From Planctomycetota bacterium (GTDB lineage Bacteria > Planctomycetota > UBA11346): a DNA stretch of 31,752 nt. The stretch covers positions 1 through 31,752 of the forward strand of contig JBBQSO010000063.1 in assembly GCA_038213805.1 (NCBI GenBank), in the 5' to 3' direction. Below, in pieces: positions 2,083 to 30,429 of this stretch. Each line of letters opens with the position of its first letter. Positions within the stretch are counted from its first letter, which is position 1. Under the pieces are notes generated by a model that saw only the letters and a list, made by a program, of their open reading frames with translations, made no database searches and was not told the origin of the DNA. The position numbers and the translations under genes are program-made.

Positions 2083-3174
2083 ATGCGCGCCTTGGCGGTC
2101 GTCCTGCTCTTCCTGGTCGCCGCGCTCACCGCGGCTGAGCCGAGCGTGCCTCCGGCACCTCCGGGTACTGCACCTCCAGTGACTAGCGCGGCTGCGACCG
2201 AGCCTGTCCACGTCCCGCCTTCGCCCGCCCTGCTCACCGTCGAATCGGGCGGCGGCGTGTTCAGCCTGCGCGAGACCGAATCCAGCGAGCTCAGCGAAGG
2301 GGTGAGCATCGGTTACGCCGGCGCTCACCTTCTCAATGACCGCATTCGTCACTGGCAGTCGACGCCCCCGGGCCTCGCCCGCGCCATCCTCGATCACGCC
2401 CTGCTGCTCGCCGGTCCCAAGGGCTATGATCCGGCGCACGTCATCATCGACACCCGCCAGTGCGAACTGCCCGAGCTCGGTTTTCGCGGCCTGCTCACCC
2501 CCGAGGGCGTCGAGGTGCAGCGCGTTGACATCGTGATGCTGCCGCCGGTGACGGTGGGCAGCGCACCCAAGGCGCCAGGTGTCAGCGCGGCCCAGCCGAT
2601 CACCGACCCGAAGCAGCGTCCGGGCACCCCCACGCCGCCGGAGGGGGGCACACCCGCAACCGCGGCCACCGGCGAGGCGCACCCGGCCAAGGCTGCCAAG
2701 GCGGCTCAGCTGCCGCCCATCGCCCTCGTCCACTACCGCATCCTGCTCCACCATCTCGAAGGATTCCAAGGCAAGCTGCGCAGCGCCAGCGGCTGGAAGG
2801 ACCACATGGGCTGGGCCGACGAGGCCGAGCTCTTGATGGTCGCCGATCTGCTGCCCACCGGTCTGGCCAACCCGCGATTCGAGACCATCCATCTCTTTGG
2901 GCGCCAGGCGCGTGGCGACCTGCCCAAGCGCCCAGCCGAGCTGGTCCGCCTCCGGGAGGGCGTCCACCCTCCGCCCTCGCTCAAAGCCATCACCGCCGAT
3001 GAACTCGACATGAGCATCGAGAGCATGACCCAGACCATCGAGTTCGATGCCGCGGGCCAAGTTAAGCGCATGCTGCAGGGCCAGGATGTGAAGATCAAAG
3101 GCACGCCCAGCCTGGACATGCCAGTCGGGCGCAGCAGCCAGCCGAAACTCGAGCCGGCGCCGACGAAGCCCTAG
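2083..3174 (+). CDS. Exported hypothetical protein, possibly LptA/OstA-like beta-jellyroll
   Basis: Signal peptide MRALAVVLLFLVAALTA-AE; two Pro/Ala-rich linkers; segments GVSIGYAGAHLLNDRI and ITADEL resemble OstA-type strands. The CDS is well supported; the family call is weak. Confidence 0.7.
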   Translation: MRALAVVLLFLVAALTAAEPSVPPAPPGTAPPVTSAAATEPVHVPPSPALLTVESGGGVFSLRETESSELSEGVSIGYAGAHLLNDRIRHWQSTPPGLARAILDHALLLAGPKGYDPAHVIIDTRQCELPELGFRGLLTPEGVEVQRVDIVMLPPVTVGSAPKAPGVSAAQPITDPKQRPGTPTPPEGGTPATAATGEAHPAKAAKAAQLPPIALVHYRILLHHLEGFQGKLRSASGWKDHMGWADEAELLMVADLLPTGLANPRFETIHLFGRQARGDLPKRPAELVRLREGVHPPPSLKAITADELDMSIESMTQTIEFDAAGQVKRMLQGQDVKIKGTPSLDMPVGRSSQPKLEPAPTKP

Positions 3175-3228
3175 AGCGACCGACCGGCGTCTTGTGTCGG
3201 TGAGCGCAGCGCCGACCATAAATGCCGC

Positions 3229-3747
3229 ATGATCGTCCTCCGCCACCTCTTGGCCGAATGCGTCAAGCTGCCGCTCGATCTGGTGCCCACGGCACCGGCT
3301 GAGGATGAGACCCCGGCCCAGGCCGCCCGCCGCCTGGCTGCCGACAAGGAATCCGCCATCACCGAGCTGTGCGCTGTGCTCGGGCTCAGCGGCCAGGTCA
3401 ACAACCTCACGCGCCTGACCCGCGACATGATCAACCGCGAGCGCAAGGCGACCACCGCCATCGCCTCGGGCGTGGCCATCCCGCACGTGCGCAGCATGCA
3501 GATGCGCGGCTTTGTGATGGGCTTTGCCCGCGCTCGCGACCCGGGTCTGCCCTTCGCCAGCCTCGACGGCGATCCCACCCGGCTCTTCTTCGTGCTCGCC
3601 AGCCCGCCCTGGGAAGACCGCACCTACCTGCAGCTCTACCGCGAGCTCAGCACCCTCATCCAGGACGAGGAGGTCATGGCCGGGCTGATGGCGGCGCAGA
3701 CCGTTCAGGAGGTGTTTAATGCGTTGCGGACGCTGTTGTTGAGGTGA
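3229..3747 (+). CDS. PTS IIA-family protein (nitrogen-regulatory/fructose type)
   Basis: RERKATTAIASGVAIPHVR retains the phospho-acceptor His motif (RE...T...G.AIPH); FASLDGDPTRLFFVL matches F.S.DG.PV.LFF. Confidence 0.88.
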   Translation: MIVLRHLLAECVKLPLDLVPTAPAEDETPAQAARRLAADKESAITELCAVLGLSGQVNNLTRLTRDMINRERKATTAIASGVAIPHVRSMQMRGFVMGFARARDPGLPFASLDGDPTRLFFVLASPPWEDRTYLQLYRELSTLIQDEEVMAGLMAAQTVQEVFNALRTLLLR

Positions 3748-3929
3748 TGGCAGGCTGATGGCTGATGGCTGATGGCTGATGGCCTTTGCTTTTTGCGTCG
3801 TTGAAGCGTTGATCTTCCTACAACAGCCGGGGAATCTCTATTGCCGGTCAACGGCGGTGCTGTCGATTCGGTCGCCTGCCATCAGCCATCAGCCATCAGC
3901 CATCAGCCATCAGCCATCAGCCATCAGCC
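3745..3929. repeat. Inverted pair of heptamer tandem arrays, (TGATGGC)n ... (GCCATCA)n
   Basis: TGATGGC at 3745, then AGGC, then 4 units (3756-3783); 94 nt spacer; 7 units of GCCATCA (3878-3926). Confidence 0.95.
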
Positions 3930-3952
3930 CGCCATTCGGCCTCCAGTCGTTA

Positions 3953-3979
3953 TTGACTCCGAATCCTACCCCATATCCT
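3953..3979 (+). promoter_or_regulatory. Possible rpsA promoter
   Basis: TTGACT (3953-3958), 15 nt spacer, TATCCT (3974-3979). The spacer is shorter than canonical. Confidence 0.35.
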
Positions 3980-4104
3980 GCGTGCCCCTTCGCAGATGCC
4001 GTCCCCGGATGTTCCGGCGTGATGCGCCTGCGCAACCGGTCCGCACCGCGGACCCTACCCCTGGCGGTCAGCCCCTGAGGCTGCCGGGAAAAGAATGCAC
4101 CCCC

Positions 4105-5736
<1,632 letters not shown>

Positions 5737-5785
5737 AGACACAGCAGACGCTGTCTGATGAGACGACGATGCCTCGGCATCGGCT

Positions 5786-5820
5786 TGCACCCGGGGGATC
5801 TCCTCCGGGTGCACGTATTT
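5786..5820 (+). terminator. Hairpin downstream of rpsA, likely terminator
   Basis: TGCACCCGG...CCGGGTGCA stem (5786-5813) followed by CGTATTT. Confidence 0.55.
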
Positions 5821-6173
5821 GCGGGAAAGGTTGTCGCCTCCGCGCACCAGACCGACAGCGGCGCACTCTGGTCAGAAGGTCAAAGTGGGCGTGCTCCAGG
5901 CGCTTCCGGGCATGAAATCGCCTCCATCCCACCTCGATACCATCGTGGGGAGGGGCCTTGGCGGCGCCGCGCGACGTTTCATAGGCAGCTAAAGCCCAAT
6001 CACTTACATAAATTCCGTGATGGTAGGTTAAGCAGACACTCCGACCCAGTGCGCAGGGAATCGGTTTGGGCCCACTGCGATTAGTGGTCTACTCACTGCC
6101 CGTTGTCCGTGGGGCCAGTGCGTGGGCGTCTGATACGCCTGTCCGCTGCGGTCCCGGGCCTCCCTGAATGCGG

Positions 6174-6211
6174 TGAACCTTTCCAAAGGAGCCGCGTTGA
6201 ACCGACTTACC
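6174..6211 (+). promoter_or_regulatory. ECF-sigma-like promoter, copy 1
   Basis: TGAAC (6174-6178), 16 nt spacer, CGTTGA (6195-6200), N7, TACC; the same motif precedes the other two paralogs. Confidence 0.7.
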
Positions 6212-6228
6212 GCACCTGGAGCACTCCC

Positions 6229-7920
6229 ATGAGCCCCTCGTCCCACGATCAGAACGACCACCTCGACGACGCTCAGGCCCGTGGCCAGAGCGACGGCCAG
6301 AACCCTGAGGAATTGGAGGGCGAGGAAGGCGAGGAGGAGGAGCATAAGCCCGCCTCCGGAATCGCCGGCTGGCCCATCAGCGCCGCGGTGCATGCGCTCG
6401 TCGCCCTGATCTTCTGCTATATCGTGTTCGCCGCCCACAAGGACGAGGAAGAGCTCGCGCCGATGCGCGTGACGACCATGGATCCTCCGCCCAAGAAGGA
6501 GGAGAAGAAGGAGCAGCGCGATGTCGAGGCCAAGGTCGACGTGAACGTCGAGACCGTCGCCGATGTCGCCGCCCCCGTCACCCAGCTCGACGTCAAAGTC
6601 GAAGAGGTCAGCCAAAGCGAAGAGGACAATGACGCCCAGGTGGCCAAGGGTCGTGAAGAGGCCGTCTCGTCCCAGGAGACCGGTGGCCAGGGCGCCTTCA
6701 TGGCGATCGGCGCCGGCGGTGGTTCCGCTGGCATGTTCGGCAGCCGCAGCGGCGGTGGCAAGCACCGTGCCCTGGCCAAGGGCGGCGGCACCCGCGCCAG
6801 CGAAAGCGCGGTGGACGCTGCGCTGCGCTGGTTCAAGAAGCACCAGAGCCCGAACGGCATGTGGGATCCCGAGAAGTACCCGGTCAACTGCCAGGAGAAC
6901 CCCAAGTGCGAGCCCGGCTCGACCGGTGACGTCGGCGGCAGCGATGCCGGTATCGCCATGACCGGCTACGCCGTGCTGTGCTTCCTGGGCGCGGGCTACG
7001 ACCACAAGACCCCGAGCAAGTTCAAGGCCACCGTGCAGAAGGGTCTCGAATACCTGCGCTCGGTGCAGAAGCCGGACGGCCTGCTGGGCGTGCGGAACTA
7101 CGAGCACGGCGTCGCCACCATGGCGATGGCCGAGGCCTATGCGATGACCACGGATGCCGACCTCAAGGGTCCGGCGCAGAAGGGCATCAAGGTCATCCTC
7201 GACCGCCAGTCCAAGGACGGCAGCAAGGACGCCGACAAGGCCTACAGCGGCCTGGGCTGGGACTACGAGGCGGCCAACCCGGCACGTAACGACTCGTCGG
7301 TCAGCGGCTGGTGCGTGATGGCGCTCAAGAGCGGGCTCGCCGGCGGACTGAACGTCGGCACCGGCATGGAAGGCGCCAAGAAGTGGCTCGAGAAGGCCTG
7401 GAAGGCCGCGAACAAGGACTGGATGAAGCTGACCGACCCGTACTCGGCGACCTCGAGCTTCCCCTACTGCTGGGATTCGACCACCGACGCCGTACAGATC
7501 GATCCGCCCGGCAGCGGTGCGCATGATATGGCCCCGGTCGGCGCGCTGTGCGCGGTGTTCCTCGGCCACCATGCCGGAAACATCATGCTCGAGTCGCTGT
7601 GCAACCACATCATGAAGTACCAGTTCCCGGCCAAGTACCCCTGCAACACCTACTACATGTATTACAACACCTTGGCCGTCTTCCAGGCCGGTGGCGACCG
7701 TTGGAAGCGCTGGAATGACACCGTCCGCGACATGCTGGTCAATGCCCAGCGCAAGAGCGCGGACTGTTTCGACGGCAGCTGGGATGCCCAGGGCACGATC
7801 TTCCACGGCAACAGCGTGGGTCGCGTGCTGAGCACGGCCTACTGCTGCCTGTGCCTCGAAGTCTACTATCGCTACAAGGTGGTCGGCCACGATGCGGCTC
7901 CGGATCCTGCAAAGAAGTAA
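6229..7920 (+). CDS. Membrane-anchored prenyltransferase/squalene-oxidase-repeat (alpha/alpha toroid) protein, paralog 1
   Basis: Acidic N-tail, TM GWPISAAVHALVALIF, PPPKKEEKK linker, Gly-rich segment, then QW-type repeats (ALRWFKKHQSPNGMW, GLEYLRSVQKPDG, LVNAQR...GSWD), NDSSVSGW and STAYCCLCLEVYYR. SD GGAG before ATG 6229. Confidence 0.88.
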   Translation: MSPSSHDQNDHLDDAQARGQSDGQNPEELEGEEGEEEEHKPASGIAGWPISAAVHALVALIFCYIVFAAHKDEEELAPMRVTTMDPPPKKEEKKEQRDVEAKVDVNVETVADVAAPVTQLDVKVEEVSQSEEDNDAQVAKGREEAVSSQETGGQGAFMAIGAGGGSAGMFGSRSGGGKHRALAKGGGTRASESAVDAALRWFKKHQSPNGMWDPEKYPVNCQENPKCEPGSTGDVGGSDAGIAMTGYAVLCFLGAGYDHKTPSKFKATVQKGLEYLRSVQKPDGLLGVRNYEHGVATMAMAEAYAMTTDADLKGPAQKGIKVILDRQSKDGSKDADKAYSGLGWDYEAANPARNDSSVSGWCVMALKSGLAGGLNVGTGMEGAKKWLEKAWKAANKDWMKLTDPYSATSSFPYCWDSTTDAVQIDPPGSGAHDMAPVGALCAVFLGHHAGNIMLESLCNHIMKYQFPAKYPCNTYYMYYNTLAVFQAGGDRWKRWNDTVRDMLVNAQRKSADCFDGSWDAQGTIFHGNSVGRVLSTAYCCLCLEVYYRYKVVGHDAAPDPAKK

Positions 7921-7972
7921 GCGCCTGCACGCGCATCAGATCAGATTTGCTGAAGGCAGCAGCCTGGCACAG

Positions 7973-8005
7973 GAAGACCCCCGCTCACGCGGGGGTTTTC
8001 TGTTT
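7973..8005 (+). terminator. Rho-independent terminator after paralog 1
   Basis: GAAGACCCCCGC-TCAC-GCGGGGGTTTTC followed by TGTTT. Confidence 0.85.
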
Positions 8006-8059
8006 GCGTGCGGTGGTCACTGGATGTCCGTGGCCACCTGAGAGGGGCGCGGATTGGTC

Positions 8060-8098
8060 TGAACGTTCTGCGCACGGGTGCCGTTCACCGGACATACC
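8060..8098 (+). promoter_or_regulatory. ECF-sigma-like promoter, copy 2
   Basis: TGAAC (8060-8064), 17 nt spacer, CGTTCA (8082-8087), N7, TACC; SD AGGAG before ATG 8114. Confidence 0.7.
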
Positions 8099-8113
8099 CC
8101 GCAGGAGTACGGC

Positions 8114-9829
8114 ATGGGTCATGCAGCAATTGTGGATGGACAATTAGCGCAGCGCACCGCGGTGGGTTGCGGCCGTCACCTGCGCCTGCGCGCTGTGGCC
8201 GGGTGGCAAATCAGCGCCGTCTTCCACCTCGCCGCGGCCGTGCTCTGTGCATGCGCCGTGACGATCGTGCACGATGGGGACGCGCCCGCGCCGCAGCCGC
8301 TGCTGATCGCCGTCGCCCCAATGCTGCCGGTCATGACGACGGCGAAGGAGGAGGCGCGCGTCCCTGTGGTGAACGCGCTTGACCTGATCGAAACCGACGT
8401 CGACGAGGCGGGTGCAATCGCCGGTGACATGGCCGGGCCGCGCGCGTCCGCGCTGGATACCGCCAGTATGAATGCCTTGGTCGGCGACATGCTGAGCACT
8501 GCTCGCGCGGGCACCGGCGCCGAGGGCCGGCCGGACGAGGACCAGCGCCAGGCGCATACCGGAACGGGCGCTAGACAGCGTGACGACACAGGCATCGGTG
8601 ACGGTTTCGCAGTCGGAAATGGGGAAGACAACGTAGGTGGGATTCACAGCCGGGGCATCACATGCTATTGCAAAGCGAGGCGCCAGGTCCTCCTGCGGGA
8701 GGGTGGAACCTGGCGCAGCGAGAACGCCGTCGAATCCGCGCTGCGCTGGTTCAAACGTCACCAGAGCGAAGATGGTCGCTGGGCGGCGGTGGGCTATGCG
8801 GCGAATTGTCAGGCGACGCCGAAGTGCGAGCCGGGTTCGCTGGACGGGACGGGCGGCAGCGAGGTCGATATCGCCCTCACTGGCTATGCCGTGCTGTGTT
8901 ATCTCGGCGCCGGCTTCGACCACTTTACGCCCAGCCGCTTCACGTCGCCGGTGCGCAGGGGTCTGGAATTCCTGGTCGCGTCGCAGCAGCCGGACGGCCT
9001 GCTCGGCAAGCGCACCTACGAACACGCGGTGGCGGCCTACGCCCTCGCCGAGGCATTTGCGCACACCGGCGATCCCACATTGCGCGGGCCGGCGCAGCTC
9101 GCGATCGCGGTCATCCTGCAGCGCCAGGCGCGCGGCGGCGGCGGTGAGGCGCAGGGGCGGCTGGGCTGGGACTACGAGGATGGCCACGCGGAACGCAACG
9201 ACGCCTCGGTGAGCGGTTGGTGTGTGCTCGCGCTGCGCGCCGCCGCCGCCGGGGGCCTCGACGTGGGCACCGGGCTGGGTGGGGCGCGCGCCTGGCTGGA
9301 GCGGGCCTGGCAGGCGGCGAATCCGGGATGGGCTCAGCTCGATGCGCACCGCGGACGCTCATCGTTTCCCTACGTGTGGGATGCGTCCAGCGGCGCGGTG
9401 CTGAGTGATCCCCCGGGTAGTCCTGCGCATGATCTCGCACCGGTCGGTGCGCTCTGCGCGGCCTTCCTCCGTCACCCGGCGGGTGATCCGATGCTCGAAA
9501 CGCTGTGCAACCATATCGAGGCGTGGCAGCTGCCCATGACGTACCCCTGCAACACGTATTACCTGTATTACGACACCGCGGCGGTATTCCAGGCGGGCGG
9601 CGAACGCTGGAAGCGCTGGAACGCCGCTGTCCGCGACCTGCTGGTCGGAGCGCAGCGCGGTGGCACCGACTGCTTCACCGGCAGCTGGGACGCCCACGGC
9701 ACGGTCTTCCCCGGACACGAGGTCGGGCGCGTCCTGAGCACCGCCTACTGCTGCCTGTGCCTCGAGGTGTATTACCGCCAGGAGCGCGTGGCGGTCGAGC
9801 CGGCGGTGGGTCGCTGCGTGTCGCGTTGA
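8114..9829 (+). CDS. Membrane-anchored prenyltransferase-repeat protein, paralog 2 (diverged)
   Basis: TM GWQISAVFHLAAAVL; ALRWFKRHQSEDGRW, PKCEPGS, NDASVSGWCVLAL, YPCNTYY, STAYCCLCLEVYYR are colinear with paralogs 1 and 3. Confidence 0.85.
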   Translation: MGHAAIVDGQLAQRTAVGCGRHLRLRAVAGWQISAVFHLAAAVLCACAVTIVHDGDAPAPQPLLIAVAPMLPVMTTAKEEARVPVVNALDLIETDVDEAGAIAGDMAGPRASALDTASMNALVGDMLSTARAGTGAEGRPDEDQRQAHTGTGARQRDDTGIGDGFAVGNGEDNVGGIHSRGITCYCKARRQVLLREGGTWRSENAVESALRWFKRHQSEDGRWAAVGYAANCQATPKCEPGSLDGTGGSEVDIALTGYAVLCYLGAGFDHFTPSRFTSPVRRGLEFLVASQQPDGLLGKRTYEHAVAAYALAEAFAHTGDPTLRGPAQLAIAVILQRQARGGGGEAQGRLGWDYEDGHAERNDASVSGWCVLALRAAAAGGLDVGTGLGGARAWLERAWQAANPGWAQLDAHRGRSSFPYVWDASSGAVLSDPPGSPAHDLAPVGALCAAFLRHPAGDPMLETLCNHIEAWQLPMTYPCNTYYLYYDTAAVFQAGGERWKRWNAAVRDLLVGAQRGGTDCFTGSWDAHGTVFPGHEVGRVLSTAYCCLCLEVYYRQERVAVEPAVGRCVSR

Positions 9830-9832
9830 ACT

Positions 9833-9862
9833 GATCGGCTGGCGGCGAGCGCGCCGATCGTT
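9833..9862 (+). terminator. Hairpin after paralog 2
   Basis: GATCGGC...GCCGATC stem directly after the stop codon; weak U-tract. Confidence 0.35.
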
Positions 9863-9979
9863 GCATCCACCTTTGGCTGATCCTTCTTGCGGGTGTGGTC
9901 GCTGCGCGCAACGCAGCAACCGGAGCGTGGTTCATATATTTCCCGATCCGCGCTAAAAATGTCATTTTCCGAACAGCGC

Positions 9980-10016
9980 TGAACCTTCCTTCCCGATGCC
10001 GTTCAACCTCTGTACC
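9980..10016 (+). promoter_or_regulatory. ECF-sigma-like promoter, copy 3
   Basis: TGAAC (9980-9984), 15 nt spacer, CGTTCA (10000-10005), N7, TACC; SD-like AGGGGG before ATG 10033. Confidence 0.65.
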
Positions 10017-10032
10017 ACGACAGGGGGATACC

Positions 10033-11715
10033 ATGAAGAGCACCGCAGGGGATGCAGCCAACCACCACGAGGATGAAGACGCGCTGCGCGACGGCGCAGT
10101 GCCCGGCGATGGCCCGGAGGAAGCAGCGGACGCGGCACAGGGCGACGATCGTCAGCGCAGCGGAATCGCCGGTTGGCCGATCAGCGCCGCGGTCCACGCC
10201 TTGGTGGCGCTGGTCTTCGCGTATGTGGTGTTCGCGGCGCACAAACAGGAGGAGGAGCTCGCGCCGATGCAGGTGACGGTCATCGATGCGCCGCCGAAGA
10301 AGGATCCTCCGAAGGACCAGCGCCAGATCATGGCTCAGGTGCCACTCGACATCCAGACGCCTGAGGACACGACAGTCGCGCCGATCACGACTCTCGACGT
10401 CATGCCCGAGGAATTCTCCCAGAGCGAAGAGAATAATGATGCGATGGCTGCCAAGGGCCGCGAGGAGGCGGTTTCAACCAGCGAGCAGGGATCCAGCGGC
10501 GCCTTCGCCGCGATCGGCGCCGGCTCCGGAGCTTCAGGGCTGCACGGATTGCGCACCGGCGGTGGCCGCCATCGCGCGCTGCAGGCCGGCGGGGCCAGTC
10601 GCCTCAGCGAAGGCGCCGTGGACGCGGCGCTGCGCTGGTTCAAGAAGCATCAGAGCGCGAACGGCATGTGGGATGCAGAGAAGTATCCGGCGAACTGCAC
10701 CGAGAACCCCAAGTGCGAGCCCGGCTCGACCACCGCGGCGGGGGCCAGCGATGCGAGCATCGCCCTGACCGGCTACGCGGTGCTGTGCTTCCTTGGCTCC
10801 GGCTACGACCACAAGACCCCGAGCAAGTTCAAGGCCACCGTGCAGAAGGCCCTCGATTACCTGCGCTCGGTGCAGAAGCCCGACGGCCTGCTCGGGGTGC
10901 GCAACTACGAGCACGCGGTCGGTACCTACGCGCTCTCGGACGCCTACGGCATGACCTTCGATCCAGACCTGAAGGCCCCGGCGCAGCGCGCCGTCAACCT
11001 ACTCATCAGCCGCCAGGCCAAGGACACCGGCAAGGACGCGGACAAGGCCTATAGCGGCCTGGGTTGGGACTACGAGGCGGCCAACCCGGCGCGCAACGAC
11101 TCCTCGGTCAGCGGCTGGTGCGTGATGGCGCTCAAGAGCGCGCTCGGCGCCGGGCTCCAGGTCGGCAACAGCATGGAGGGCTCGAAGAAGTGGCTCGAAC
11201 GTTCCTGGAAGGCGGCGAATAAGGATTGGGCGAAGCTGACCGACCCGTACACCGCGATGTCGAGCTTCCCCTACACCTGGGATGCGACCAGCGACGTGGT
11301 GCAGATCGATCCTCCGGGCAGCCCGATGCACGACATGGCGCCGGTCGGCGCGCTGTGCGCGGTGTTCCTCGGCCACCATGCCGGCAACGTCATGCTCGAG
11401 TCCCTGTGCAACCACATCTCGAAGTACCAGATGCCGACCAAGTATCCCTGCAACACCTACTACCTGTACTATGACACCGCAGCGATGTTCCAGGCTGGCG
11501 GTGAGCGCTGGAAGCGCTGGAACAACACCGTCCGCGACATGCTGGTGAATGCCCAGCGCGGCGGTGACGATTGCTTCAACGGCAGCTGGGATCCGCAGGG
11601 CACGGTCTTCCACGGCAGCGAGGTCGGTCGCGTGCTGAGCACCGCTTACTGCTGCCTCTGCCTGGAGGTGTACTACCGGCAGGCGATCGTGGGGCATGAG
11701 CCGGTCGCAAAATAG
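10033..11715 (+). CDS. Membrane-anchored prenyltransferase-repeat protein, paralog 3
   Basis: Highly similar to paralog 1 (SGIAGWPISAAVHALVAL, KGREEAVS, GYDHKTPSKFKATVQK, NDSSVSGWCVMALKS, STAYCCLCLEVYYR). Confidence 0.88.
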   Translation: MKSTAGDAANHHEDEDALRDGAVPGDGPEEAADAAQGDDRQRSGIAGWPISAAVHALVALVFAYVVFAAHKQEEELAPMQVTVIDAPPKKDPPKDQRQIMAQVPLDIQTPEDTTVAPITTLDVMPEEFSQSEENNDAMAAKGREEAVSTSEQGSSGAFAAIGAGSGASGLHGLRTGGGRHRALQAGGASRLSEGAVDAALRWFKKHQSANGMWDAEKYPANCTENPKCEPGSTTAAGASDASIALTGYAVLCFLGSGYDHKTPSKFKATVQKALDYLRSVQKPDGLLGVRNYEHAVGTYALSDAYGMTFDPDLKAPAQRAVNLLISRQAKDTGKDADKAYSGLGWDYEAANPARNDSSVSGWCVMALKSALGAGLQVGNSMEGSKKWLERSWKAANKDWAKLTDPYTAMSSFPYTWDATSDVVQIDPPGSPMHDMAPVGALCAVFLGHHAGNVMLESLCNHISKYQMPTKYPCNTYYLYYDTAAMFQAGGERWKRWNNTVRDMLVNAQRGGDDCFNGSWDPQGTVFHGSEVGRVLSTAYCCLCLEVYYRQAIVGHEPVAK

Positions 11716-11716
11716 A

Positions 11717-11776
11717 GCGGAAGGACCGAAGGGCGGAAGGGCAGAAGGGGGTATCCCTTCTGCCCTTCCGCTTTTC
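11717..11776 (+). terminator. Intrinsic terminator built from 8-bp tandem repeats
   Basis: Units GCGGAAGG/ACCGAAGG/GCGGAAGG/GCAGAAGG; perfect 17-bp stem 11733-11749 with 11755-11771, loop GGTAT, then TTTT. Confidence 0.85.
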
Positions 11777-11968
11777 CTACAGCCATCATGTTTCCCCGGC
11801 TTTACCCGGAGAGACCCTCGCCTGATCATGCCTCCGTCCGTTCCTTGGCTGCCCCGCCGTCCTGCGACCCCCGTGGTCTCCCGGAAAAACCCGGTTGAGC
11901 GCCCTGCCACAAGGCGATATGCCTAGGCCCCCGCCGCCCAACCGATGGCGGGTGACGAGGGGGCGCCT

Positions 11969-14527
11969 GTGGGATTCCTGGGACTGCGCAAGGCGAAGTG
12001 GCGGCATGCGGATCCGGCGGTGCGCCTGGCCGGCGTGGCCGACCTGACTTATGACCAGCAGGCGTTGTTCGCCAAGCTCGCCGGCGAGGACGCGGATGGT
12101 CGCGTGCGCCTGGCCGCGGCGCGCCGCATCAACGATCAGGGGGCGCTGCAGCGCCTGCTGCAGGCCGGCGATCCGGAGGTCGCGCGGCTCGCCCGCGAGC
12201 GCCTCGCCGGGGTGGCCGTCAAGCTTGCCCTGGAGCGCCCATTCGGCGAGGTCGGGGCGATGCTCGGCACCATCGCCGACCAGAAGTCGCTGGCCGAGCT
12301 CAGTCTGTCGGCCAAGGACGCGCAGGTGCGCGAAGCCGCCCTCGCCCGCCTGCTCGCGTTGCCGGAGCCCAGCCCGGCGCTGCTGGTGATGATCGCGGTG
12401 CAGGATGCCGGCGGGGCCTTCGGCCTGCGCGCGGTGGCCAAGCTCGACAAGCGCGGCCTGCTCAAGGATGTCGCGCGCAAGGCCAAGCACGCCGGGGTGC
12501 AGGCGGCAGCAGTGGCGCGCGCCGAGGTGCTCGAAGCAGAGAGTGGCAAGCCCACCCCCGAGCAGCTGCGCAAAGCCCGGCTCAAGGCCCTTGAGGCGCT
12601 CGCGGCGCAGGGCGTGCGCCTGGCAGTGACCAGCGACCACGAGCGCGCTGCCGCCGAGTGGACCGGCGTCGAGGCGCGCCGCGTCGCGGTGCTCGCTGAG
12701 TTCGCGGCGGTGCCGCTCGATGATACGGCGCGCGCCATCGATGAGCGTCTCCAGCGCGGGCATCGAGATTTCACCGCGCGCCGCGCTGCCGAACAGGCGG
12801 CGCGCGAGGCCGCAGAGGCCGCGCGTGAGAGCTTCCTGGCAGCCTTGACCGGCGAGGCCGCCGCCGCCGAGCCCGCAGCGCGCCGCGCCGAGCTGAACGC
12901 GGCCTGGACGGCGCTCGGCGTTCTGCCCGCGCAGAATAAGCGCGTTCTCGAGGCGCGCTTCGTCCAGGAGTTGGCGCGCATCTGCCCGTTGCCGTCCGCC
13001 GCCGCCGCCGGCGTGGCGTCTGACGCGTCAATCGCCACAGCTGAGGCGATCGCCGCGCGCGGCGACGGCCTGGACGAGGCCGCGCGCACTGAGCTGCAGA
13101 CCCTGACCGACGAGAGCGCTGCCCTCGCCGCCAAGGAGGGCCTGCAGCACGGCGACGACTTCCGCGACGTGATCGACCGCTTCCGCGTGCTACACAAGCG
13201 CTGGCTCTTCCTGAGCGCACCGCTGCCGGAGCGTCATCCGCTGCGCGCTGGCTTCATGGATGCCTACGGCCGGTTCAAGGAGCGGCAACGCGCCTGGCGC
13301 GACGAGCGCACCGCGCAGGCGACTGAGCGCGTGACCCGGCTCACCGCCCTGGCGGTGGAGGCCGAGGCTCTGGCCGCGCAGCCGCCCAGCGAGGCGGAGC
13401 TGCGTCCGCGTTTCGACCGCCTACGCCAACTGCAGGCCGAGTGGAAGGCGGTCGGCGCCGTGCGGCTGGAGCTGATCAAAGTGGTTCGTTCGCGCTTCCG
13501 CGCGGCTTGCGACGAGGCCTACAAGCCGGTCAAGGCTCTGCAGGAAGCCGAGGACTGGGCGCGCTTCGCCCAGTTCGCCAAGGCCGAGGAACTGGCCGCC
13601 GCCGTCGAGGCGCTGAGCGCTGTGGAGGATCTCGCTGCGGTCGCGCAGCACGTCAAGCGCGCCCAGCAGGACTGGAAGACCCTTGGCCCGCTGCCGCGCG
13701 ACAAGCGCGAGTCCGCCTGGCAGCGTTTCCGCGTCGCCTGCGACGCGCAGTACGAGCGCCTCAAGCCGCATTTCGCCGCGCTTGACGCAGCGCGCGCCAG
13801 CAATCTCGAGCGCAAGCGCGCGCTGGTCGCCGAGGTCGGGCAGATCGCCGGACAGGCGCCGATCGGCCTGGCCGGCAGTCCCGCCGACCGTCTGGCGAAG
13901 AAGGCCGCGGCCGAGCGCATCAAGGCCATCCAGCAGGAATGGCGCAGTGTCGGCCCGGTGCCGCGCGAGCACGACCAGGAGCTGTGGACCGCGTTCCGCG
14001 CGGCCTGCGACGGCTTCTTCGGCCAGCACCGCGCGGAGATCTCGGAACAGCACCAGGAGTTCATGGCCAACTTCGAGCGCAAACAGGCGCTGTGCGTCGC
14101 CGCTGAGACCCTCGCCGGCGAGGCCGAGGCCGGCGTCGCCGATCCGGGCAAGGCCCAGCCCGGCGGCGAGGTCATGCGCCGCATCAAGGACGTGCAGGCC
14201 GCGTGGAAGACCATCGGCCACGTACCGCGCGAACACGTCGAGACGGTGTGGACGCGCTTCCGCACCGCCTGCGACCGCGTTTACGCGACGCTGAAGGAGC
14301 ACATCGCCGCGCAGGAGGCGGAGCGGCAGGACAACCTCGCCAAGAAGCGCGCCATCCTGGTCGAGGCCGAGGAGCTGCTGAAGCACGAGAACGCGCACTG
14401 GTTCAAGGACGACTTCCGCGACCTCCAGCGTCAGTGGCGCGAGATCGGCTACGTCCCGCGCGAAAACATGGACGAGCTGGCGCAGCGCTTCCGCGAGGTC
14501 TTCGACAAGGCCATGGCATTGAAATAG
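11969..14527 (+). CDS. DUF349-domain protein
   Basis: N-terminal KWRHADPAVRLA HEAT-like start; five W-x-x-(I/V/L)-G repeats (WKAVGAVR, WKTLGPLPR, WRSVGPVPR, WKTIGHVPR, WREIGYVPR), most followed by (R/A)FR.ACD. Start placed at GTG 11969 after GAGGGG; ATG 11945 is the alternative. Confidence 0.88.
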   Translation: MGFLGLRKAKWRHADPAVRLAGVADLTYDQQALFAKLAGEDADGRVRLAAARRINDQGALQRLLQAGDPEVARLARERLAGVAVKLALERPFGEVGAMLGTIADQKSLAELSLSAKDAQVREAALARLLALPEPSPALLVMIAVQDAGGAFGLRAVAKLDKRGLLKDVARKAKHAGVQAAAVARAEVLEAESGKPTPEQLRKARLKALEALAAQGVRLAVTSDHERAAAEWTGVEARRVAVLAEFAAVPLDDTARAIDERLQRGHRDFTARRAAEQAAREAAEAARESFLAALTGEAAAAEPAARRAELNAAWTALGVLPAQNKRVLEARFVQELARICPLPSAAAAGVASDASIATAEAIAARGDGLDEAARTELQTLTDESAALAAKEGLQHGDDFRDVIDRFRVLHKRWLFLSAPLPERHPLRAGFMDAYGRFKERQRAWRDERTAQATERVTRLTALAVEAEALAAQPPSEAELRPRFDRLRQLQAEWKAVGAVRLELIKVVRSRFRAACDEAYKPVKALQEAEDWARFAQFAKAEELAAAVEALSAVEDLAAVAQHVKRAQQDWKTLGPLPRDKRESAWQRFRVACDAQYERLKPHFAALDAARASNLERKRALVAEVGQIAGQAPIGLAGSPADRLAKKAAAERIKAIQQEWRSVGPVPREHDQELWTAFRAACDGFFGQHRAEISEQHQEFMANFERKQALCVAAETLAGEAEAGVADPGKAQPGGEVMRRIKDVQAAWKTIGHVPREHVETVWTRFRTACDRVYATLKEHIAAQEAERQDNLAKKRAILVEAEELLKHENAHWFKDDFRDLQRQWREIGYVPRENMDELAQRFREVFDKAMALK

Positions 14528-21041: not shown

Positions 21042-21121
21042 CAATGCGCGAAATGCGCCTTGGCGCCATTCTCATTGTAGTACACGACACTCGCCCGCCA
21101 TCGCCCTCCCGAGGTTCCGTC

Positions 21122-23845
21122 ATGCCCGCCCGCTCCATGTTTCTGGTCATCCTGCTGCTCGTATGCGGGCTGCCTGCCCAGGCAGCGGTGCCGACCGATC
21201 CCGGCCTCGCCCCGGGTGGACTGGCCGGATTCTACTACGCGACGCCTGATTTCAGCGGACCGGCCCAGATGGTGGTCGATGGGCAGGTCGACTTCGACTG
21301 GGGCACGGGAGCGCCGCTTCCCGGCATGCCGGTGGATGATTTCACCGTGCGCTGGCTTGGCCAGGTCCTGGCCACCGACAGTGAGGATCTGACCCTGGTG
21401 GTGCGTTCCGACGATGGCGTCCGCGTCTGGCTCGATGGCGTCCTGGTGATCAACGACTGGGTGGCGCGTGCCCCGAGCGAATCCCGCTACACCTTCCCGG
21501 CGCTCGCCGGCCATGCCTATGCGCTGCGCCTCGATTATTTCGAGGCCAAGGGCGGGGCGGTGGCCAGCTTGGCGTGGGAAAGCGCACACCATTCCCGGCA
21601 GGCCATCCCGTCCGCCAATCTGATCCCGCTGCTGCAGCCGTCGCTCATCGCGATCCCCGCCGCCTCGCCGGTCTCGCCGATCTGCCTGGTCGGCATGCGC
21701 CGACCGGATGCGCAGGTCCAAGTCAGCGCCGACGGCACGGTCAGGAAGGTCAAGGACCTGCCCGAGACCGGTTTCTACGCCGATGTCCCCCTCGACGCCC
21801 AGCGCGCCACCAGCATCACGGTCGATGGGCAGGTCGCTGAGGTCGCATGGACGCCGTCCGAGGTGACCGGTGACCACCACGTCGTGATCCGCGTCGGCGA
21901 TGCCCTGCTGCTGACCGCTGCGCGTGCGGTCGTCTACGACCTCATCACCGATTCGGGCGTGGTCGCGACCGGCAGGAAGCTCAAGGCCGGCGCCACGCGC
22001 GTGGAGCGCTTCGCAGCGGCAGGCCAGTACGCCGTGCTCGTCAGCGATGCCACGGGCGCGAGCGCCGGACGCATGGATATCGAGGTGGTCGGCGTCAATT
22101 TCGACGGCCCGGTCGCCTGCCAGGTCGGTTTCCGCCGCGAGAAGGGCGTCGAGATCAGCGGCGCTCCCGCCGACCGCGTCGAGTTCGCCGGCGCTGACGC
22201 GTCGCTGCTCGACGTGGCATTCAAGGAAGTGACCGACTACGGCGTGCGCATCTACCTGACCGCCCTGCGCCGCGGCGCGCCGCTGGCCGTGGCGCGCCTG
22301 GCTGGTGGCGGTGCGATCATCGGCACACAGCGCATCGACGAGTTCACGCTGTCGACCGATGCCCTGCTGGCGGCCGTGCGCAACGATGACAATGGCAGCG
22401 CCGGCGTCGCCATGACCTTGCGCCCGTGGCTGCCGGACCTCACCGCGCAGTTCCGCATCTTCGCCCACGCCACCACCTTCGAAGGCGGCGGCAAGGCCCT
22501 GGACATCAGCAGCAACGACGTGAAGACCTTCATTGATCCGGCGACCGGCGAGAAGTGCGGACTGTTCGAGTTTCAGCTCGCGATCCCGGACGGCGAGAGC
22601 CTCTACTGCTTCAATCTGGCAATCGACCAGCACAGCAACCATGGGACCACGGTGGGTGGCAGCACCTTCAATGGCGCCGCCTGCGACTTCACCGTCGACA
22701 AGCTGAGCATCGAGCAGGGCGATGTCACCGCCCACCAGCTGGTCATCAACGAGGGCGCGTCCAACGCTGACGCCAATCATCACGGCAAGCACAAGAAGGA
22801 CCACCCCATCCTGCTCGACACCAGGGCGGCCGGCAGCCTGGTGATGACGCCCGATCCCGTGAACGGCGCCACCTTCGACTGCGTGAAGGAGGACAACTGG
22901 CGCCCGATCATCACTGGCACGGCCAAAGCCAAGACCGGACTGTATTCGGTGGCCATCCACAACACGCTGTTCAAGGACTGCATTGAAGTCTACTCGAACT
23001 GCAAGTTCGAGCTCAGCGCGACCATTGAAAAAGCGGGCAAGGACAAGCTCTTCCGGGTCTTCCCCGGGACCAGTGTGACGATCAACTGCAAGCTCCTCAA
23101 GAAGGGCACCAACGATCCGGCTACGCACACCCTGTTTGTGACCGGCACCACCAGCATGCCATTCGAGATCACCTGTCCGAAGAAGGAGGGGGAGACGGTG
23201 ACGCAGAAGGTTGACGTCTTTGCGCTCAAGCTTCCCGCAGGCGATTATTCCGCGAGGATCCTGAGCTCGTCGAAGGAGAAGATCTTCACCGTCACCGACC
23301 GTCAGACCCTGAACAACATGATCGACACTCTGCATGGCGAAATGGGCCATGTGACGACCGGCGGCGCGGCCGTCACCCCCGGGGCAGCGACCATCGTGTC
23401 AGGTGGCACGACCGGAGCCTTCACCGTGACCATCACCCAGCCGTTCAACGTCACCTACGAAGCTGCCTCGGATCTGCAGAACTTTCTGAATCCCGGTCAG
23501 AGCATGGCGTGGTCGCCGGCGGAGATGGCGAAGGCGCCCGCGGGTGAGCTCACCAATTGGGGCCTGACCGTGGACTATGTGCAGAACCACGAGACCGGCC
23601 ATGTTGCGACCTGGGACGCCGAGAAGGTGGCGAACCGCGTCGAGACCGCGCATGGCAGCGGCACCGGGACAACGGCTGCGGAAGCCAGAACGGCGGCGAA
23701 CGCCGCGCTGGCCCTCGAAATCACCGCCATCGGCGCGATCCCTGCCCAGATCAAAACGGCCGACAATGAAGCTCAGGCAGCTTTTCACCTAACGCCGCGC
23801 GGCGGCGTCGATGTCGGGCAGTTCAAGATTCCCGGCCGGGATTGA
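21122..23845 (+). CDS. Secreted PA14-domain protein with C-terminal HExxH domain
   Basis: Signal peptide ending PAQA; PA14 motifs GLAGFYY, VDFDWGTGAP, DDFTVRWLG, SDDGVRVWLDG, LDYFEAKGGA; HETGH at 23588-23602. Confidence 0.87.
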   Translation: MPARSMFLVILLLVCGLPAQAAVPTDPGLAPGGLAGFYYATPDFSGPAQMVVDGQVDFDWGTGAPLPGMPVDDFTVRWLGQVLATDSEDLTLVVRSDDGVRVWLDGVLVINDWVARAPSESRYTFPALAGHAYALRLDYFEAKGGAVASLAWESAHHSRQAIPSANLIPLLQPSLIAIPAASPVSPICLVGMRRPDAQVQVSADGTVRKVKDLPETGFYADVPLDAQRATSITVDGQVAEVAWTPSEVTGDHHVVIRVGDALLLTAARAVVYDLITDSGVVATGRKLKAGATRVERFAAAGQYAVLVSDATGASAGRMDIEVVGVNFDGPVACQVGFRREKGVEISGAPADRVEFAGADASLLDVAFKEVTDYGVRIYLTALRRGAPLAVARLAGGGAIIGTQRIDEFTLSTDALLAAVRNDDNGSAGVAMTLRPWLPDLTAQFRIFAHATTFEGGGKALDISSNDVKTFIDPATGEKCGLFEFQLAIPDGESLYCFNLAIDQHSNHGTTVGGSTFNGAACDFTVDKLSIEQGDVTAHQLVINEGASNADANHHGKHKKDHPILLDTRAAGSLVMTPDPVNGATFDCVKEDNWRPIITGTAKAKTGLYSVAIHNTLFKDCIEVYSNCKFELSATIEKAGKDKLFRVFPGTSVTINCKLLKKGTNDPATHTLFVTGTTSMPFEITCPKKEGETVTQKVDVFALKLPAGDYSARILSSSKEKIFTVTDRQTLNNMIDTLHGEMGHVTTGGAAVTPGAATIVSGGTTGAFTVTITQPFNVTYEAASDLQNFLNPGQSMAWSPAEMAKAPAGELTNWGLTVDYVQNHETGHVATWDAEKVANRVETAHGSGTGTTAAEARTAANAALALEITAIGAIPAQIKTADNEAQAAFHLTPRGGVDVGQFKIPGRD

Positions 23846-26996: not shown

Positions 26997-29276
26997 CTAT
27001 TTCTTCTCAAACCGCTTCAGCGCCTCGATCGCCCGCTGCTGCCCCTGCTCCGCCGCCTTGGTCCACCAGGCGACGGACTGATCGAGGTCGACTTCGACAC
27101 CCCAGCCCTTGGCGAAGCAGTCGCCGTAGGCGACCTGGGCGACGGGGTGGCCGAGTTCGGCAGCCTTGGCATACCAATGACAGGCCTGATGCAGGTCGCG
27201 GGGCACGCCCCAGGCGTAGGTGAGGTGGTCGCCGAGGTTGCACATGGCGTGGGCGAAGCCCTGGTCTGCGGCCAAGCGGTACCACACCACCGCCTGCGGG
27301 TAGTCGCGCGCCACCCCATCACCGGTGGCGTAGCAGACGCCGAGGTTGTTCTGCGCCAGGGCCAGACCCTGGTCGGCGGCCTTGCGGTACCAGAAGATCG
27401 CCTCCTCCTGGTTGCGCGGCATGCCCAGGCCCTTCTCAGCGCAGTCGCCGAGGCTGAACTGCGCCTGGGCCTGGCCGCCTTCGGCGGCGCGGCGGTACCA
27501 GGCGGCGGCGGCGACGTGGTCGCGCGAGACGCCGTGGCCCTGGGCGTGGCAGTCGCCGAGGGCATTGAAGGCTTCGACCAGGCCGGCCTCCGCGGCCTTG
27601 CGCAGCCATAGCACCGCCTGCACGGCATCGCGTGCCACGCCCTGTCCACGCAGCAGGCATGCTCCGAGCTGCAGCTGGGCGTCGGGCAACTCCTGAAGGG
27701 CGGCCTTGCGGTACCACGCCACTGCCTGCTTCGCGTCGCGCTCACCGCCCTCGCCGGTGGCCAGGCAGTCGGCGAGGTTGTGCTGGGCCTTGGCCAAGCC
27801 CTGCTCGGCCGCGCGCCGGTACCAGGCCACGGCCTGGATGGGATCGCGCGGCAGGCCGTGGCCGTGGCGGTGGCAGTTGCCGAGGTTGTTCTGCGCCAGG
27901 TCGAGTCCGTGAGCCGCGGCCTTGCGGTACCACACCATGGCTTCGCCGTGGTCCTGGGCGACGCCGTCGCCATTGCGGAAGCAGGTGCCAAGGTTGTTCT
28001 GCGCGGTGGCGTAGCCCTGCTCGGCGGCCTTGCGGTACCAGTGCACGGCCATGCCGAGGTCGAGCGGAACCCCCATGCCCTTGCGGTAGCACACGCCGAG
28101 GTTGTTCTGCGCGATCGGCAGACCCTGCTCGGCGGCGCGCGTGAACCAGATCACCGCGCGCGGCAGGTTCTGGGCCACGCCCTCGCCGTTGCGGAAGCAG
28201 GTGCCGAGATTGTTCTGGGCCAGCGCCAGGCCCTTTTCGGCGGCGCGCGTGAACCAGGTCACCGCCTCGGCGAAATCGCGGGCCACGCCGGTGCCCTTCA
28301 TGTAGCAGGTGCCGAGGTTGTTCATCGCCAAAGGCAGGCCCTGGTCCGCGGCGCGCCGGTACCAGTGGACCGCCTGGATGTAGTCGCGCGGCGCACCGTC
28401 GCCGGTGCGGAAGGCGGTGCCCAGGTTGTACTGCGCCGTGGCTTGGCCGGCCTCGGCGGCGGCCAGGTAGCGGCGCACGGCCGGATGGTCGTTGGGGTTC
28501 TGACGCAGCTCGTCGGCGAAGGAGTCGATCGGCGTGACGACGTGGGTACCGGTGCCCGGGGACAGTACGATGCGCTCGTCGTCGGGCAGGTCGTCGAATG
28601 GCGTGCGCGGCTCGGGCAGAGGCAGGCGGCCGGGGACGGCCTGCAGCGTCATGGGGATGGGGTCGCGTGGGCTCGTACCGGGCACCTGGTCCTCGAGGAC
28701 CACGAGTGGAACCTCATCGTGCGGCAGGGGGGCTTCACGCAGCCATTGCGGGATGTCCAGCGCGGCATCAGCCCCGGCGTGAACGTCGCTGCTAGCCACG
28801 GTCGGCTCGTGCAGGGGGGTGTCCTCGGTGACGGGGATCCCCATTGCGCGTTCCGCTGTCGCCGCGGTCGCTGCGGAAAGGGCGGTCGGCGGTTCCTCTG
28901 ACCCCTCGGCCGTGGTCACTGGTGCGTAGCTGGAGTTGGAGATGGCGGCGGTCGAGCAGGTCTCGGGCAGCGTGAGCGGGTCGTGATCGTTGACGGTCTG
29001 AGCCGCGGCGCGGTCGATGGCGACCTGGGCCAAAGTCGCCTGGGTCCAGCCGCGGGCCTGGCTGTCCGGCCGCACGGCCAGATCCAGGGGCTCGTCATCG
29101 TCGTCCTCGGGAATGCCGAAAGGCGGCACCAGGAAGACATTGGCCGGGGCTTCGGGCGGAGGGGTGTTGCGCATGCGCTGCAGATCGAGCAAGCGCTCCT
29201 GGGCGGCACGGCGCCAGCGCTCATCCTCGGGGTTGTCGGGCGACAGCTGGTTCGGGGGATCCGTCGGGCTCGGCAT
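26997..29276 (-). CDS. Sel1-like repeat protein (13 repeats) with a long acidic Pro-rich N-terminus
   Basis: 13 consecutive ~36-aa units AQxNLGxCxxxGxGVxxDxxxAVxWYRxAAxQG. Start at ATG 29276 after GAGG; no signal peptide visible. Confidence 0.92.
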   Translation of the reverse strand: MPSPTDPPNQLSPDNPEDERWRRAAQERLLDLQRMRNTPPPEAPANVFLVPPFGIPEDDDDEPLDLAVRPDSQARGWTQATLAQVAIDRAAAQTVNDHDPLTLPETCSTAAISNSSYAPVTTAEGSEEPPTALSAATAATAERAMGIPVTEDTPLHEPTVASSDVHAGADAALDIPQWLREAPLPHDEVPLVVLEDQVPGTSPRDPIPMTLQAVPGRLPLPEPRTPFDDLPDDERIVLSPGTGTHVVTPIDSFADELRQNPNDHPAVRRYLAAAEAGQATAQYNLGTAFRTGDGAPRDYIQAVHWYRRAADQGLPLAMNNLGTCYMKGTGVARDFAEAVTWFTRAAEKGLALAQNNLGTCFRNGEGVAQNLPRAVIWFTRAAEQGLPIAQNNLGVCYRKGMGVPLDLGMAVHWYRKAAEQGYATAQNNLGTCFRNGDGVAQDHGEAMVWYRKAAAHGLDLAQNNLGNCHRHGHGLPRDPIQAVAWYRRAAEQGLAKAQHNLADCLATGEGGERDAKQAVAWYRKAALQELPDAQLQLGACLLRGQGVARDAVQAVLWLRKAAEAGLVEAFNALGDCHAQGHGVSRDHVAAAAWYRRAAEGGQAQAQFSLGDCAEKGLGMPRNQEEAIFWYRKAADQGLALAQNNLGVCYATGDGVARDYPQAVVWYRLAADQGFAHAMCNLGDHLTYAWGVPRDLHQACHWYAKAAELGHPVAQVAYGDCFAKGWGVEVDLDQSVAWWTKAAEQGQQRAIEALKRFEKK

Positions 29277-29412
29277 GATCCTCGTATCCAATAGCTTGAG
29301 ATTCTCCTTCCAAGAGGCCCTGGCAACAGGCAATACGCCCTGCTGTCCACTCGCGTAGGCAGAGCCTGCATGCGGACTTGCGGTGCCGGCCCGCGCCGAT
29401 CCGATGGCCGGC

Positions 29413-30411: not shown

Positions 30412-30429
30412 TCATCGGAGGTGAGCGGC

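Follow-up and report, generated by a model that had tools for sequence, protein, structure and literature searches.

The D-box of Escherichia coli TonB, QPISVTMVTPAD, is a proline-flanked strand that directly follows the membrane anchor and is captured by the periplasmic dimer of ExbD, according to Loll et al. 2024 (PMC10907165). Williams-Jones et al. [quoted passage not shown] The 31,752-nucleotide stretch analysed here (contig JBBQSO010000063.1 of the Planctomycetota assembly GCA_038213805.1, hereafter the window) contains three tandem genes for paralogous proteins that begin with a transmembrane (TM) helix and linker of this general design and end in a toroid with the fold of squalene-hopene cyclase (SHC). 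Judging from sequence comparisons and a structure model, the chance that the trio represents a toroid-headed variant of the force transducer class is slightly better than even (about 0.55).

The three genes lie on the + strand and translate without stop codons. Paralogs 1 and 3 are 70% identical, and paralog 2 is 47% identical to paralog 1 and 46% identical to paralog 3; the start of paralog 2 is uncertain, a GTG being the first candidate and an ATG following 12 codons further in. A preliminary inspection of the window without database searches (the sequence-only reading) had attributed to each paralog a single N-terminal TM helix with an S-x-x-x-H motif, a description that holds and can be extended to W-x-x-S-x-x-x-H. 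The nucleotide ranges that it gave for a motif beginning with isoleucine encode SAAVH (6379-6393 and 10183-10197) and, in paralog 2, SAVFH (8213-8227); the isoleucine itself sits 3 nucleotides 5′ of each range. It was right that paralog 2 keeps the motif despite a diverged N-terminus, and the linker strings that it quoted, DPPPKKEEKKE and DAPPKKDPPK, are both present in the translations.

Relatives of the trio are widespread in the phylum. An even sample of 151 Planctomycetota genomes, 95 of them of high quality, contained the family (called at E ≤1e-20) in 140 and 86 genomes, respectively, usually in several copies each. A word-indexed search that scored 8000 candidates yielded 566 proteins at E ≤0.001; an exhaustive one gave 9746 representatives at 50% identity, of which 1548 reached E ≤1e-30. 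The 68 loci taken from species-representative genomes are all labelled Planctomycetota (including Kuenenia and Brocadiaceae) save a few labelled 'bacterium', and the only database names of the relatives are 'hypothetical' and 'terpene cyclase/mutase family protein'.

None of the 43 sequences of alignment A1, in which identity falls to as little as 30%, departs from the serine and histidine of the helix (S51 and H55). When a hidden Markov model (HMM) of the helix region was applied to 270 retrieved proteins, the module was recognized in 196, with histidine in all 196, serine in 192 (R, A, N or V in the rest) and tryptophan in 181; the HMM was made from the family itself, which renders the presence of the module partly circular but not the residue counts inside it. 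The conservation of this pair on which the sequence-only reading had staked its interpretation is thus borne out among module-bearing relatives. The 74 proteins without the module comprise fragments, multidomain proteins of large size and forms that have no anchor. Seven relatives of about 1000-1100 amino acids (aa) (P0186, P0177, P0193, P0200, P0212, P0214 and P0229) were considered as TonB-like proteins and rejected: they share the barrel and the glycine-rich stretch before it, but have a signal peptide and no S-x-x-x-H helix. A scan of the genome (5.5 Mb) for [WFY]xxSxxxH together with an uncharged hydrophobic stretch recovered the four anchored toroid paralogs of the organism (three in the window and one on contig C53) and a single unrelated multi-pass open reading frame (ORF). 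In this genome, the motif is thus found essentially in the family and exceeds chance.

Beyond the helix, the family consensus reads (E/D)-x-P-P-(V/I)-(R/K)-(V/I)-x-x-(I/L)-x-P-P-P, which in paralog 3 is EELAPMQVTVIDAPP. Among the 42 sequences of a second alignment (A3), the E/D column is occupied as expected in 40, the PP in 33, the R/K in 32 and the I/L in 34, with the PPP coming next, and a pattern search detected a proline-flanked alternating strand in 27. This strand resembles, at the level of sequence, the D-box by which TonB binds ExbD, and its distance from the histidine is 22-30 residues in the family and 23-32 in E. coli TonB (K-12 record). The family shares with TonB a predicted N-in TM helix with S-x-x-x-H, the proline-flanked strand and a linker rich in proline, lysine and glutamate that would span the periplasm; in contrast to TonB, it possesses neither the TonB_C domain nor the leucine and second serine of SHLS. 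TolA has the same three-part architecture, with SAVLH in its TM helix and the post-helix strand SIDAVMVD following a run of glycines, whereas the family lacks the long helical domain II of TolA, its domain III and the tolQRB-pal context.

Profile comparison with hhalign aligned the 42-sequence alignment over 42 columns, and into the post-helix PP-strand, with the N-termini of ten Planctomycetota TonB_C proteins (probability 93.3%, E 2.8e-7), a set of 10 from 30 that had been preselected for a TM histidine and aligned with that residue as the anchor, which favours the match. The N-termini of 47 vWA proteins gave a probability of 95% (E 3e-8), whereas the controls reached 0.3% (ExbD N-termini) and 0.2-17.3% (seven ExbB windows). 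An HMM of the same alignment was also run on 343 ORFs from the six-frame translation of 30 TonB loci, and TonB_C ORFs took the top two places and four of the top five, aligned at S..H, the E-values of the top matches being weak (0.026 and 0.13).

Clusters of the order vWA-LspA-TPR-ExbB-ExbD-ExbD were seen in two genera, in agreement with the class of PMC12204202, and their vWA proteins carry W-x-x-S-x-x-x-H in N-termini that read ...VPSWVLSALFH... and ...VPSWAASLAIH... The S-x-x-x-H motif is present in 119 of 121 vWA homologues, 102 by a strict filter and 17 more by eye. The vWA transducers and the family have in common one TM helix with serine and histidine, a disordered proline-rich linker with a strand, and a head other than TonB_C; the helix motifs are of the same pattern type (VPSWVLSALFH in vWA proteins, GWPISAAVH in the family). 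They differ in that the head of the family is an (alpha/alpha)6 toroid and in that the window subfamily, at its 68 loci, never adjoins TPR-tolQ-tolR-tolR. A search for the N-terminal module in five genomes also matched three further vWA proteins, one 621-aa ORF without a Pfam family and one zf-HC2 protein. Because the same N-terminus is met on several head types, the module is, as far as sequence comparison can tell, a portable N-terminal unit common to TonB_C, vWA and toroid heads.

The sequence-only reading had spoken of a novel effector head. This calls for qualification, since the succession of SHLS helix, linker and non-TonB head had already been published in 2025 with vWA heads. The toroid head is absent from the available text of PMC12204202, where 'toroid', 'cyclase', 'prenyl' and 'terpen' have no occurrence. 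A literature search on toroid-headed TonB-like proteins found no paper, and the main text of the P. limnophila essential-gene paper contains no ExbB, ExbD, TonB, TolQ, squalene or prenyltransferase.

Several anchor proteins with other heads deserve mention. The zf-HC2 anti-sigma-like protein (473 aa, L128:1448-2869, - strand, genome G066) has the helix AWAVSGMFHGL after a cytoplasmic zinc finger. Anchor proteins of about 620-640 aa occur in tandem at L127:747-2612 and 2775-4667 (genome G043) and also at L129 (genome G070); two have VWA, and the ORF without a Pfam family among them has S-x-x-x-N in place of S-x-x-x-H.

A genomic link between toroid and motor genes was found in a sister subfamily, typified by the 767-aa protein P0271, whose barrel is 29% identical to that of paralog 3 (E 4e-37). 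Its members have an extra N-terminal helix, an invariant FFS..VH motif in which S83 and H87 are unchanged in 13 sequences, and after the helix another D-box-like strand, EPISIQTVPD. Orthologue loci were fetched from 12 of the 41 genomes with a match, and at all 12, as at the founding locus (together L087:10512-13171 and L148-L159), exbD lies immediately upstream of the toroid gene on the same strand. The two genes often overlap, the toroid protein has two helices and about 750-800 aa, the pair occurs in many genera, and there is usually no ExbB nearby; the ExbD neighbour scores 99-109 bits against PF02472 in the three loci checked. A link of this subfamily to ExbB was considered and rejected as incidental: the distance to ExbB is 4.5-5 kb in a pair of genomes from a single genus, but for P0271-type genes of five other genera, ExbB is at least 95 kb away or on no shared contig. 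Among 17 further ExbB regions, one has a protein with a signal peptide, SQHop_cyclase_C and HEAT directly upstream of ExbB-ExbD-ExbD. A protein of this description that has 616 aa and no TonB-like anchor is encoded in a motor operon at L138:9841-11691 (- strand, genome G070).

For the window subfamily, the neighbourhood enrichment of motor genes for which the sequence-only reading had suggested a test did not materialize: neither phmmer nor family HMMs found ExbB or ExbD at the 68 loci, which contain 3552 ORFs (874 kb in total, many loci being short contigs), and MoxR was present at six. The genomic link to a motor part thus stands for the sister subfamily, with its ExbD-toroid pair at 13 of 13 loci, and fails for the window subfamily at all 68. 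For 13 full-length members in five near-complete genomes, every ExbB match that shares their contig is 250 kb or more away. Neighbourhoods at the 68 loci are heterogeneous (Ser/Thr kinases at 14, DUF349 at 12, SpoIIE at 11, AraC at 10), and unbiased clustering of neighbours yielded nothing but tandem paralogs, S1 and DUF349 (by shared ancestry) and, dispersed among the loci, kinases, phosphatases, AraC and MoxR. These observations weigh against a motor-driven role for the trio, as do the preselection of the TonB set noted above and the following. The ExbD-toroid pair belongs to a different subfamily with an additional TM helix, and paralogs far outnumber motors, with up to 19 family matches per genome. 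When the chromosome of E. coli K-12 was searched with a 62-column N-terminal HMM at E ≤10, neither TonB nor TolA was retrieved; scored directly, TolA obtained 3.6 bits and TonB nothing, and homology at the sequence level to either E. coli protein had to be rejected as undetectable by the family profile. Only the serine and histidine of SHLS are kept, the residues in alignment A3 being M17/F10/L8/A4 at H+7 and V28/Y10/I4 at H+11, with no serine. Charges are only weakly biased across the helix (K and R 1.60, D and E 1.33 before it; 1.55 and 2.38 after it). Co-occurrence was rejected as evidence because the family, ExbB and even TonB_C are too widespread in the phylum: the sample of 151 genomes contains ExbB in 150, TonB_C in 111, the family in 140 and ExbB without TonB_C in 40.

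Such results would also suit a plain membrane-anchored periplasmic toroid that acts as a binder or enzyme of glycans, peptidoglycan or isoprenoid lipids, its Ser/His face mediating homo-oligomerisation or contact with a non-motor partner such as a kinase, a protease or the tandem paralog. We regard this explanation as the main rival, less likely than the force transducer reading. It agrees with the absence of motor genes at any of the 68 loci, with the recurrence of signalling genes (the Ser/Thr kinases and SpoIIE counted above), with the frequency of tandem paralogs (two module-bearing ORFs at 10 of the 68 loci), with the same TM motif on the zf-HC2 anti-sigma-like protein, with a likeness to E. 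coli TonB and TolA that is not significant, and with a toroid fold that is common to glycan-active enzymes (GH76, Z about 22; epimerases, Z about 22.8). What it leaves unexplained is an invariant histidine with a serine one turn away in 196 relatives, a conserved proline-flanked strand past the helix, hhalign matches to TonB and motor-linked vWA proteins while the ExbD and ExbB controls fail, and the ExbD-toroid gene pair of the sister subfamily.

The nature of the head was examined in an AlphaFold2 model of paralog 3 built from a 43-sequence alignment, with a mean predicted local distance difference test score (pLDDT) of 78.7 and a predicted template modelling score of 0.70. Residues 178-549 form an all-helical domain, mostly with pLDDT above 90. 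Structure comparison by VIA-align with 48,161 chains placed the SHC 1gsz first (Z 25.9, root-mean-square deviation 2.8 Å over 281 aligned residues), followed by the single-domain cyclase 8paj (Z 25.6, 19% identity), drimenyl diphosphate synthase (Z 23.8), sugar epimerases (Z about 22.8) and GH76 mannanases (Z about 22). A Foldseek search of the barrel against the PDB, as proposed in the sequence-only reading, gave generic toroid matches only, and a search of a protein atlas matched only unnamed Planctomycetota clusters. Through QW-type repeats, the family profile matches SHC with an E-value of 3e-24, and SQHop_cyclase_C of Pfam scores 24.4, 31.7 and 34.3 bits with paralogs 1, 2 and 3, respectively, the first being under the cut-off of 26.1. 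Scanning the three paralogs with Pfam at E ≤0.1 gave neither TonB_C (PF03544) nor any VWA family.

Their top fold matches, the profile match to SHC and the cyclase/mutase names that relatives bear in public records would be accounted for if the paralogs were genuine terpene cyclases of class II, or prenyltransferases, with isoprenoids as their substrates. This is highly improbable: a regular-expression search found neither DxDD nor DDxxD in any of the three, there is one toroid instead of a two-domain cyclase body, the NCBIfam cyclase models, whose cut-offs are 322-851 bits, give scores of 19-29, and the domain is predicted to be periplasmic, with relatives that have signal peptides. The head has the (alpha/alpha)6 toroid and QW-type repeats of the class II cyclases and differs from them in being a single, DxDD-less and apparently extracytoplasmic toroid on a TonB-like arm; it is a cyclase-like fold without the cyclase catalytic motif, much as the sequence-only reading had described it. 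The barrel is placed outside the cytoplasm because 29 of the 74 anchor-less relatives have signal-peptide-like starts; the domain contains 11-14 cysteines, and the periplasmic location assumed earlier is very likely. Conserved aromatic and polar residues of the head (W202, Q207, W213, Y292, W362, Y414, Y476, Y479/480 and W519) would fit a ligand pocket. Still less credible is a TED-like module of the alpha-2-macroglobulin/complement kind, serving as an inner-membrane-tethered protease trap or adhesin: TED_complement stays below its Pfam cut-off in the three paralogs (12-21 bits versus 22), the fold matches to CD109 (Z 17.9) and C3 (Z 17.4) rank under cyclases and glycosidases, CxEQ is absent from all three by regular-expression search, and there are no macroglobulin domains beside the toroid.

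The same toroid is found in the C-terminal part of a 1593-aa ORF of the same genome (C77:6797-11578, - strand), where it is 45% identical to paralog 3 over residues 150-552. The glycine-rich stretch that precedes the barrel, KGREEA..E.GG.GAF..IGAGGG..G.FG.R.GGG+K/R (10450-10560 in the window, and equivalents), is highly conserved, with invariant glycine columns in alignment A2, and recurs in the anchor-less signal-peptide relatives of about 1000-1100 aa (P0186-type).

If the trio are indeed toroid-headed force transducers, they would be bitopic inner-membrane proteins with a cytoplasmic N-terminus and the remainder in the periplasm. The first 90 or so residues would be the TonB/TolA-like part, comprising the TM helix with serine and histidine one turn apart and the proline-flanked, strand-prone segment, followed by a disordered linker of about 100 residues rich in proline, lysine and glutamate, and by the cysteine-rich, squalene-cyclase-like toroid in place of TonB's C-terminal domain. 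The helix would dock through its serine and histidine on the rim of a pentamer of the ExbB/TolQ type, a periplasmic ExbD dimer would then capture the D-box-like strand, and the linker would pass the proton-driven movement of the motor to the toroid. The toroid, in turn, may bind a ligand or partner in the envelope, such as a glycan, an isoprenoid lipid or an outer-membrane protein.

The motor for such transducers would have to be encoded outside the window. ExbB/ExbD matches of this genome are on five other contigs (C9, C13, C101, C34 and C118), with sets on C9, where the only TonB_C gene is also found, on C13 and on C101, where an ExbB with a signal-peptide-like start is followed by two ExbD; C118 has a lone ExbD, and C34 a MotA-family match with a neighbour that is MotB-like by eye only. 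The ExbB-ExbD-ExbD cluster of C101 and the ExbB-ExbD pair of C13 are the candidates. Because there is a single TonB_C gene to three ExbB/ExbD sets, at least two motors are without an identified arm, and four arms are without an identified motor, which is suggestive. In line with this, all 20 of the TonB_C-negative genomes listed from the phylum sample contain both the family and ExbB. Only two receptors with a Plug domain were found in the genome, and at E ≤1e-15 its long type of ExbD turned up in no more than 3 of 61 genomes.

The sole TonB_C protein (C9:40111-40794, - strand) has a TM helix without histidine and with asparagine in the hydrophobic stretch, and 20 of the 30 sampled Planctomycetota TonB_C ORFs failed the filter for a TM histidine. 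The crucial side chain in the helix of E. coli TonB is that of His20, a position where asparagine is tolerated, which would fit the His-less and Asn-bearing anchors noticed here. Neighbours of the cluster on C101 (1-13403) are, as judged by eye, a pair of large ORFs whose C-termini are of the secretin type, LysS and a prepilin-type protein. Another genome (G064, locus L090) has its sole ExbB followed by four ExbD, with large ORFs of 886 and 1014 aa flanking it.

Should the trio be motor-driven, the Ton/Tol principle, in which a 5:2 proton motor pulls on a periplasm-spanning protein, would gain a third type of head after the TonB/TolA domains and vWA, the ExbB/ExbD motors of genomes without TonB_C would acquire candidate outputs, and the relatives could be freed of their misleading cyclase annotation. 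With the Ser/His pair and the D-box-like strand there are precise residues to mutate, which makes the idea directly testable in genetically tractable planctomycetes. A broader proposal, decidedly speculative, is that toroid arms are the main output elements of phylum-wide ExbB-ExbD(n) motors, many interchangeable toroid and vWA arms sharing a few motors and pulling, by means of the proton-motive force, on envelope glycans, lipids or outer-membrane gates. The envelope would then hold an energised system, in a phylum of which 40 of the 151 sampled genomes have ExbB and no TonB_C.

Table 1. Positions of the three toroid paralogs and of their predicted parts in the window
Feature	Coordinates	Strand	Description	Basis
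Paralog 1	6229..7920	+	563 aa; acidic, predicted cytoplasmic tail, TM helix with S51/H55, linker, Gly-rich stretch, toroid	Translation, Pfam
TM helix of paralog 1	6367..6435	+	Approximately residues 47-69; W48/S51/H55	Helix position borrowed from the paralog 3 model
D-box-like strand of paralog 1	6457..6492	+	Proline-flanked strand APMRVTTMDPPP, residues 77-88	Sequence, column conservation, D-box definition in PMC10907165
Paralog 2	8078..9829	+	583 aa from GTG; N-terminus and linker diverged, W-x-I-S-x-x-x-H kept	
Paralog 3	10033..11715	+	560 aa; protein chosen for modelling	
TM helix of paralog 3	10171..10239	+	Residues 47-69; W48/S51/H55	DSSP helix, block pLDDT 94 and 87
D-box-like strand of paralog 3	10261..10296	+	APMQVTVIDAPP, residues 77-88	Sequence and family columns
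Linker and Gly-rich stretch of paralog 3	10297..10563	+	Linker (Pro/Lys/acidic, disordered) and the Gly-rich stretch, conserved as KGREEAV...GxGAF..IGAG.G..G..G.R.GGGR	pLDDT <50 over residues 96-168
Toroid of paralog 3	10564..11679	+	(alpha/alpha)6 toroid, residues 178-549, QW-type repeats, C-terminal LEVYYR	pLDDT, VIA-align, profile match

The 19 large ORFs of the window include neither ExbB nor ExbD, as the sequence-only reading had stated, nor MoxR/vWA proteins, and a promoter and terminator scan of 5600-12100 found nothing that exceeded shuffled controls. The trio is preceded by the gene for ribosomal protein S1 and followed by that for a DUF349 repeat protein of 860 aa (11945-14527, + strand); the presence of the DUF349 family downstream of family members at 12 of the 68 related loci is probably due to shared ancestry. 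Further along, the window encodes a PA14-domain protein of 933 aa (21044-23845, + strand) and, on the opposite strand, a Sel1 protein with 13 repeats (26997-29438, - strand), after which come an Obg GTPase and a PilT/T2SSE-type ATPase (29383-31542, + strand).

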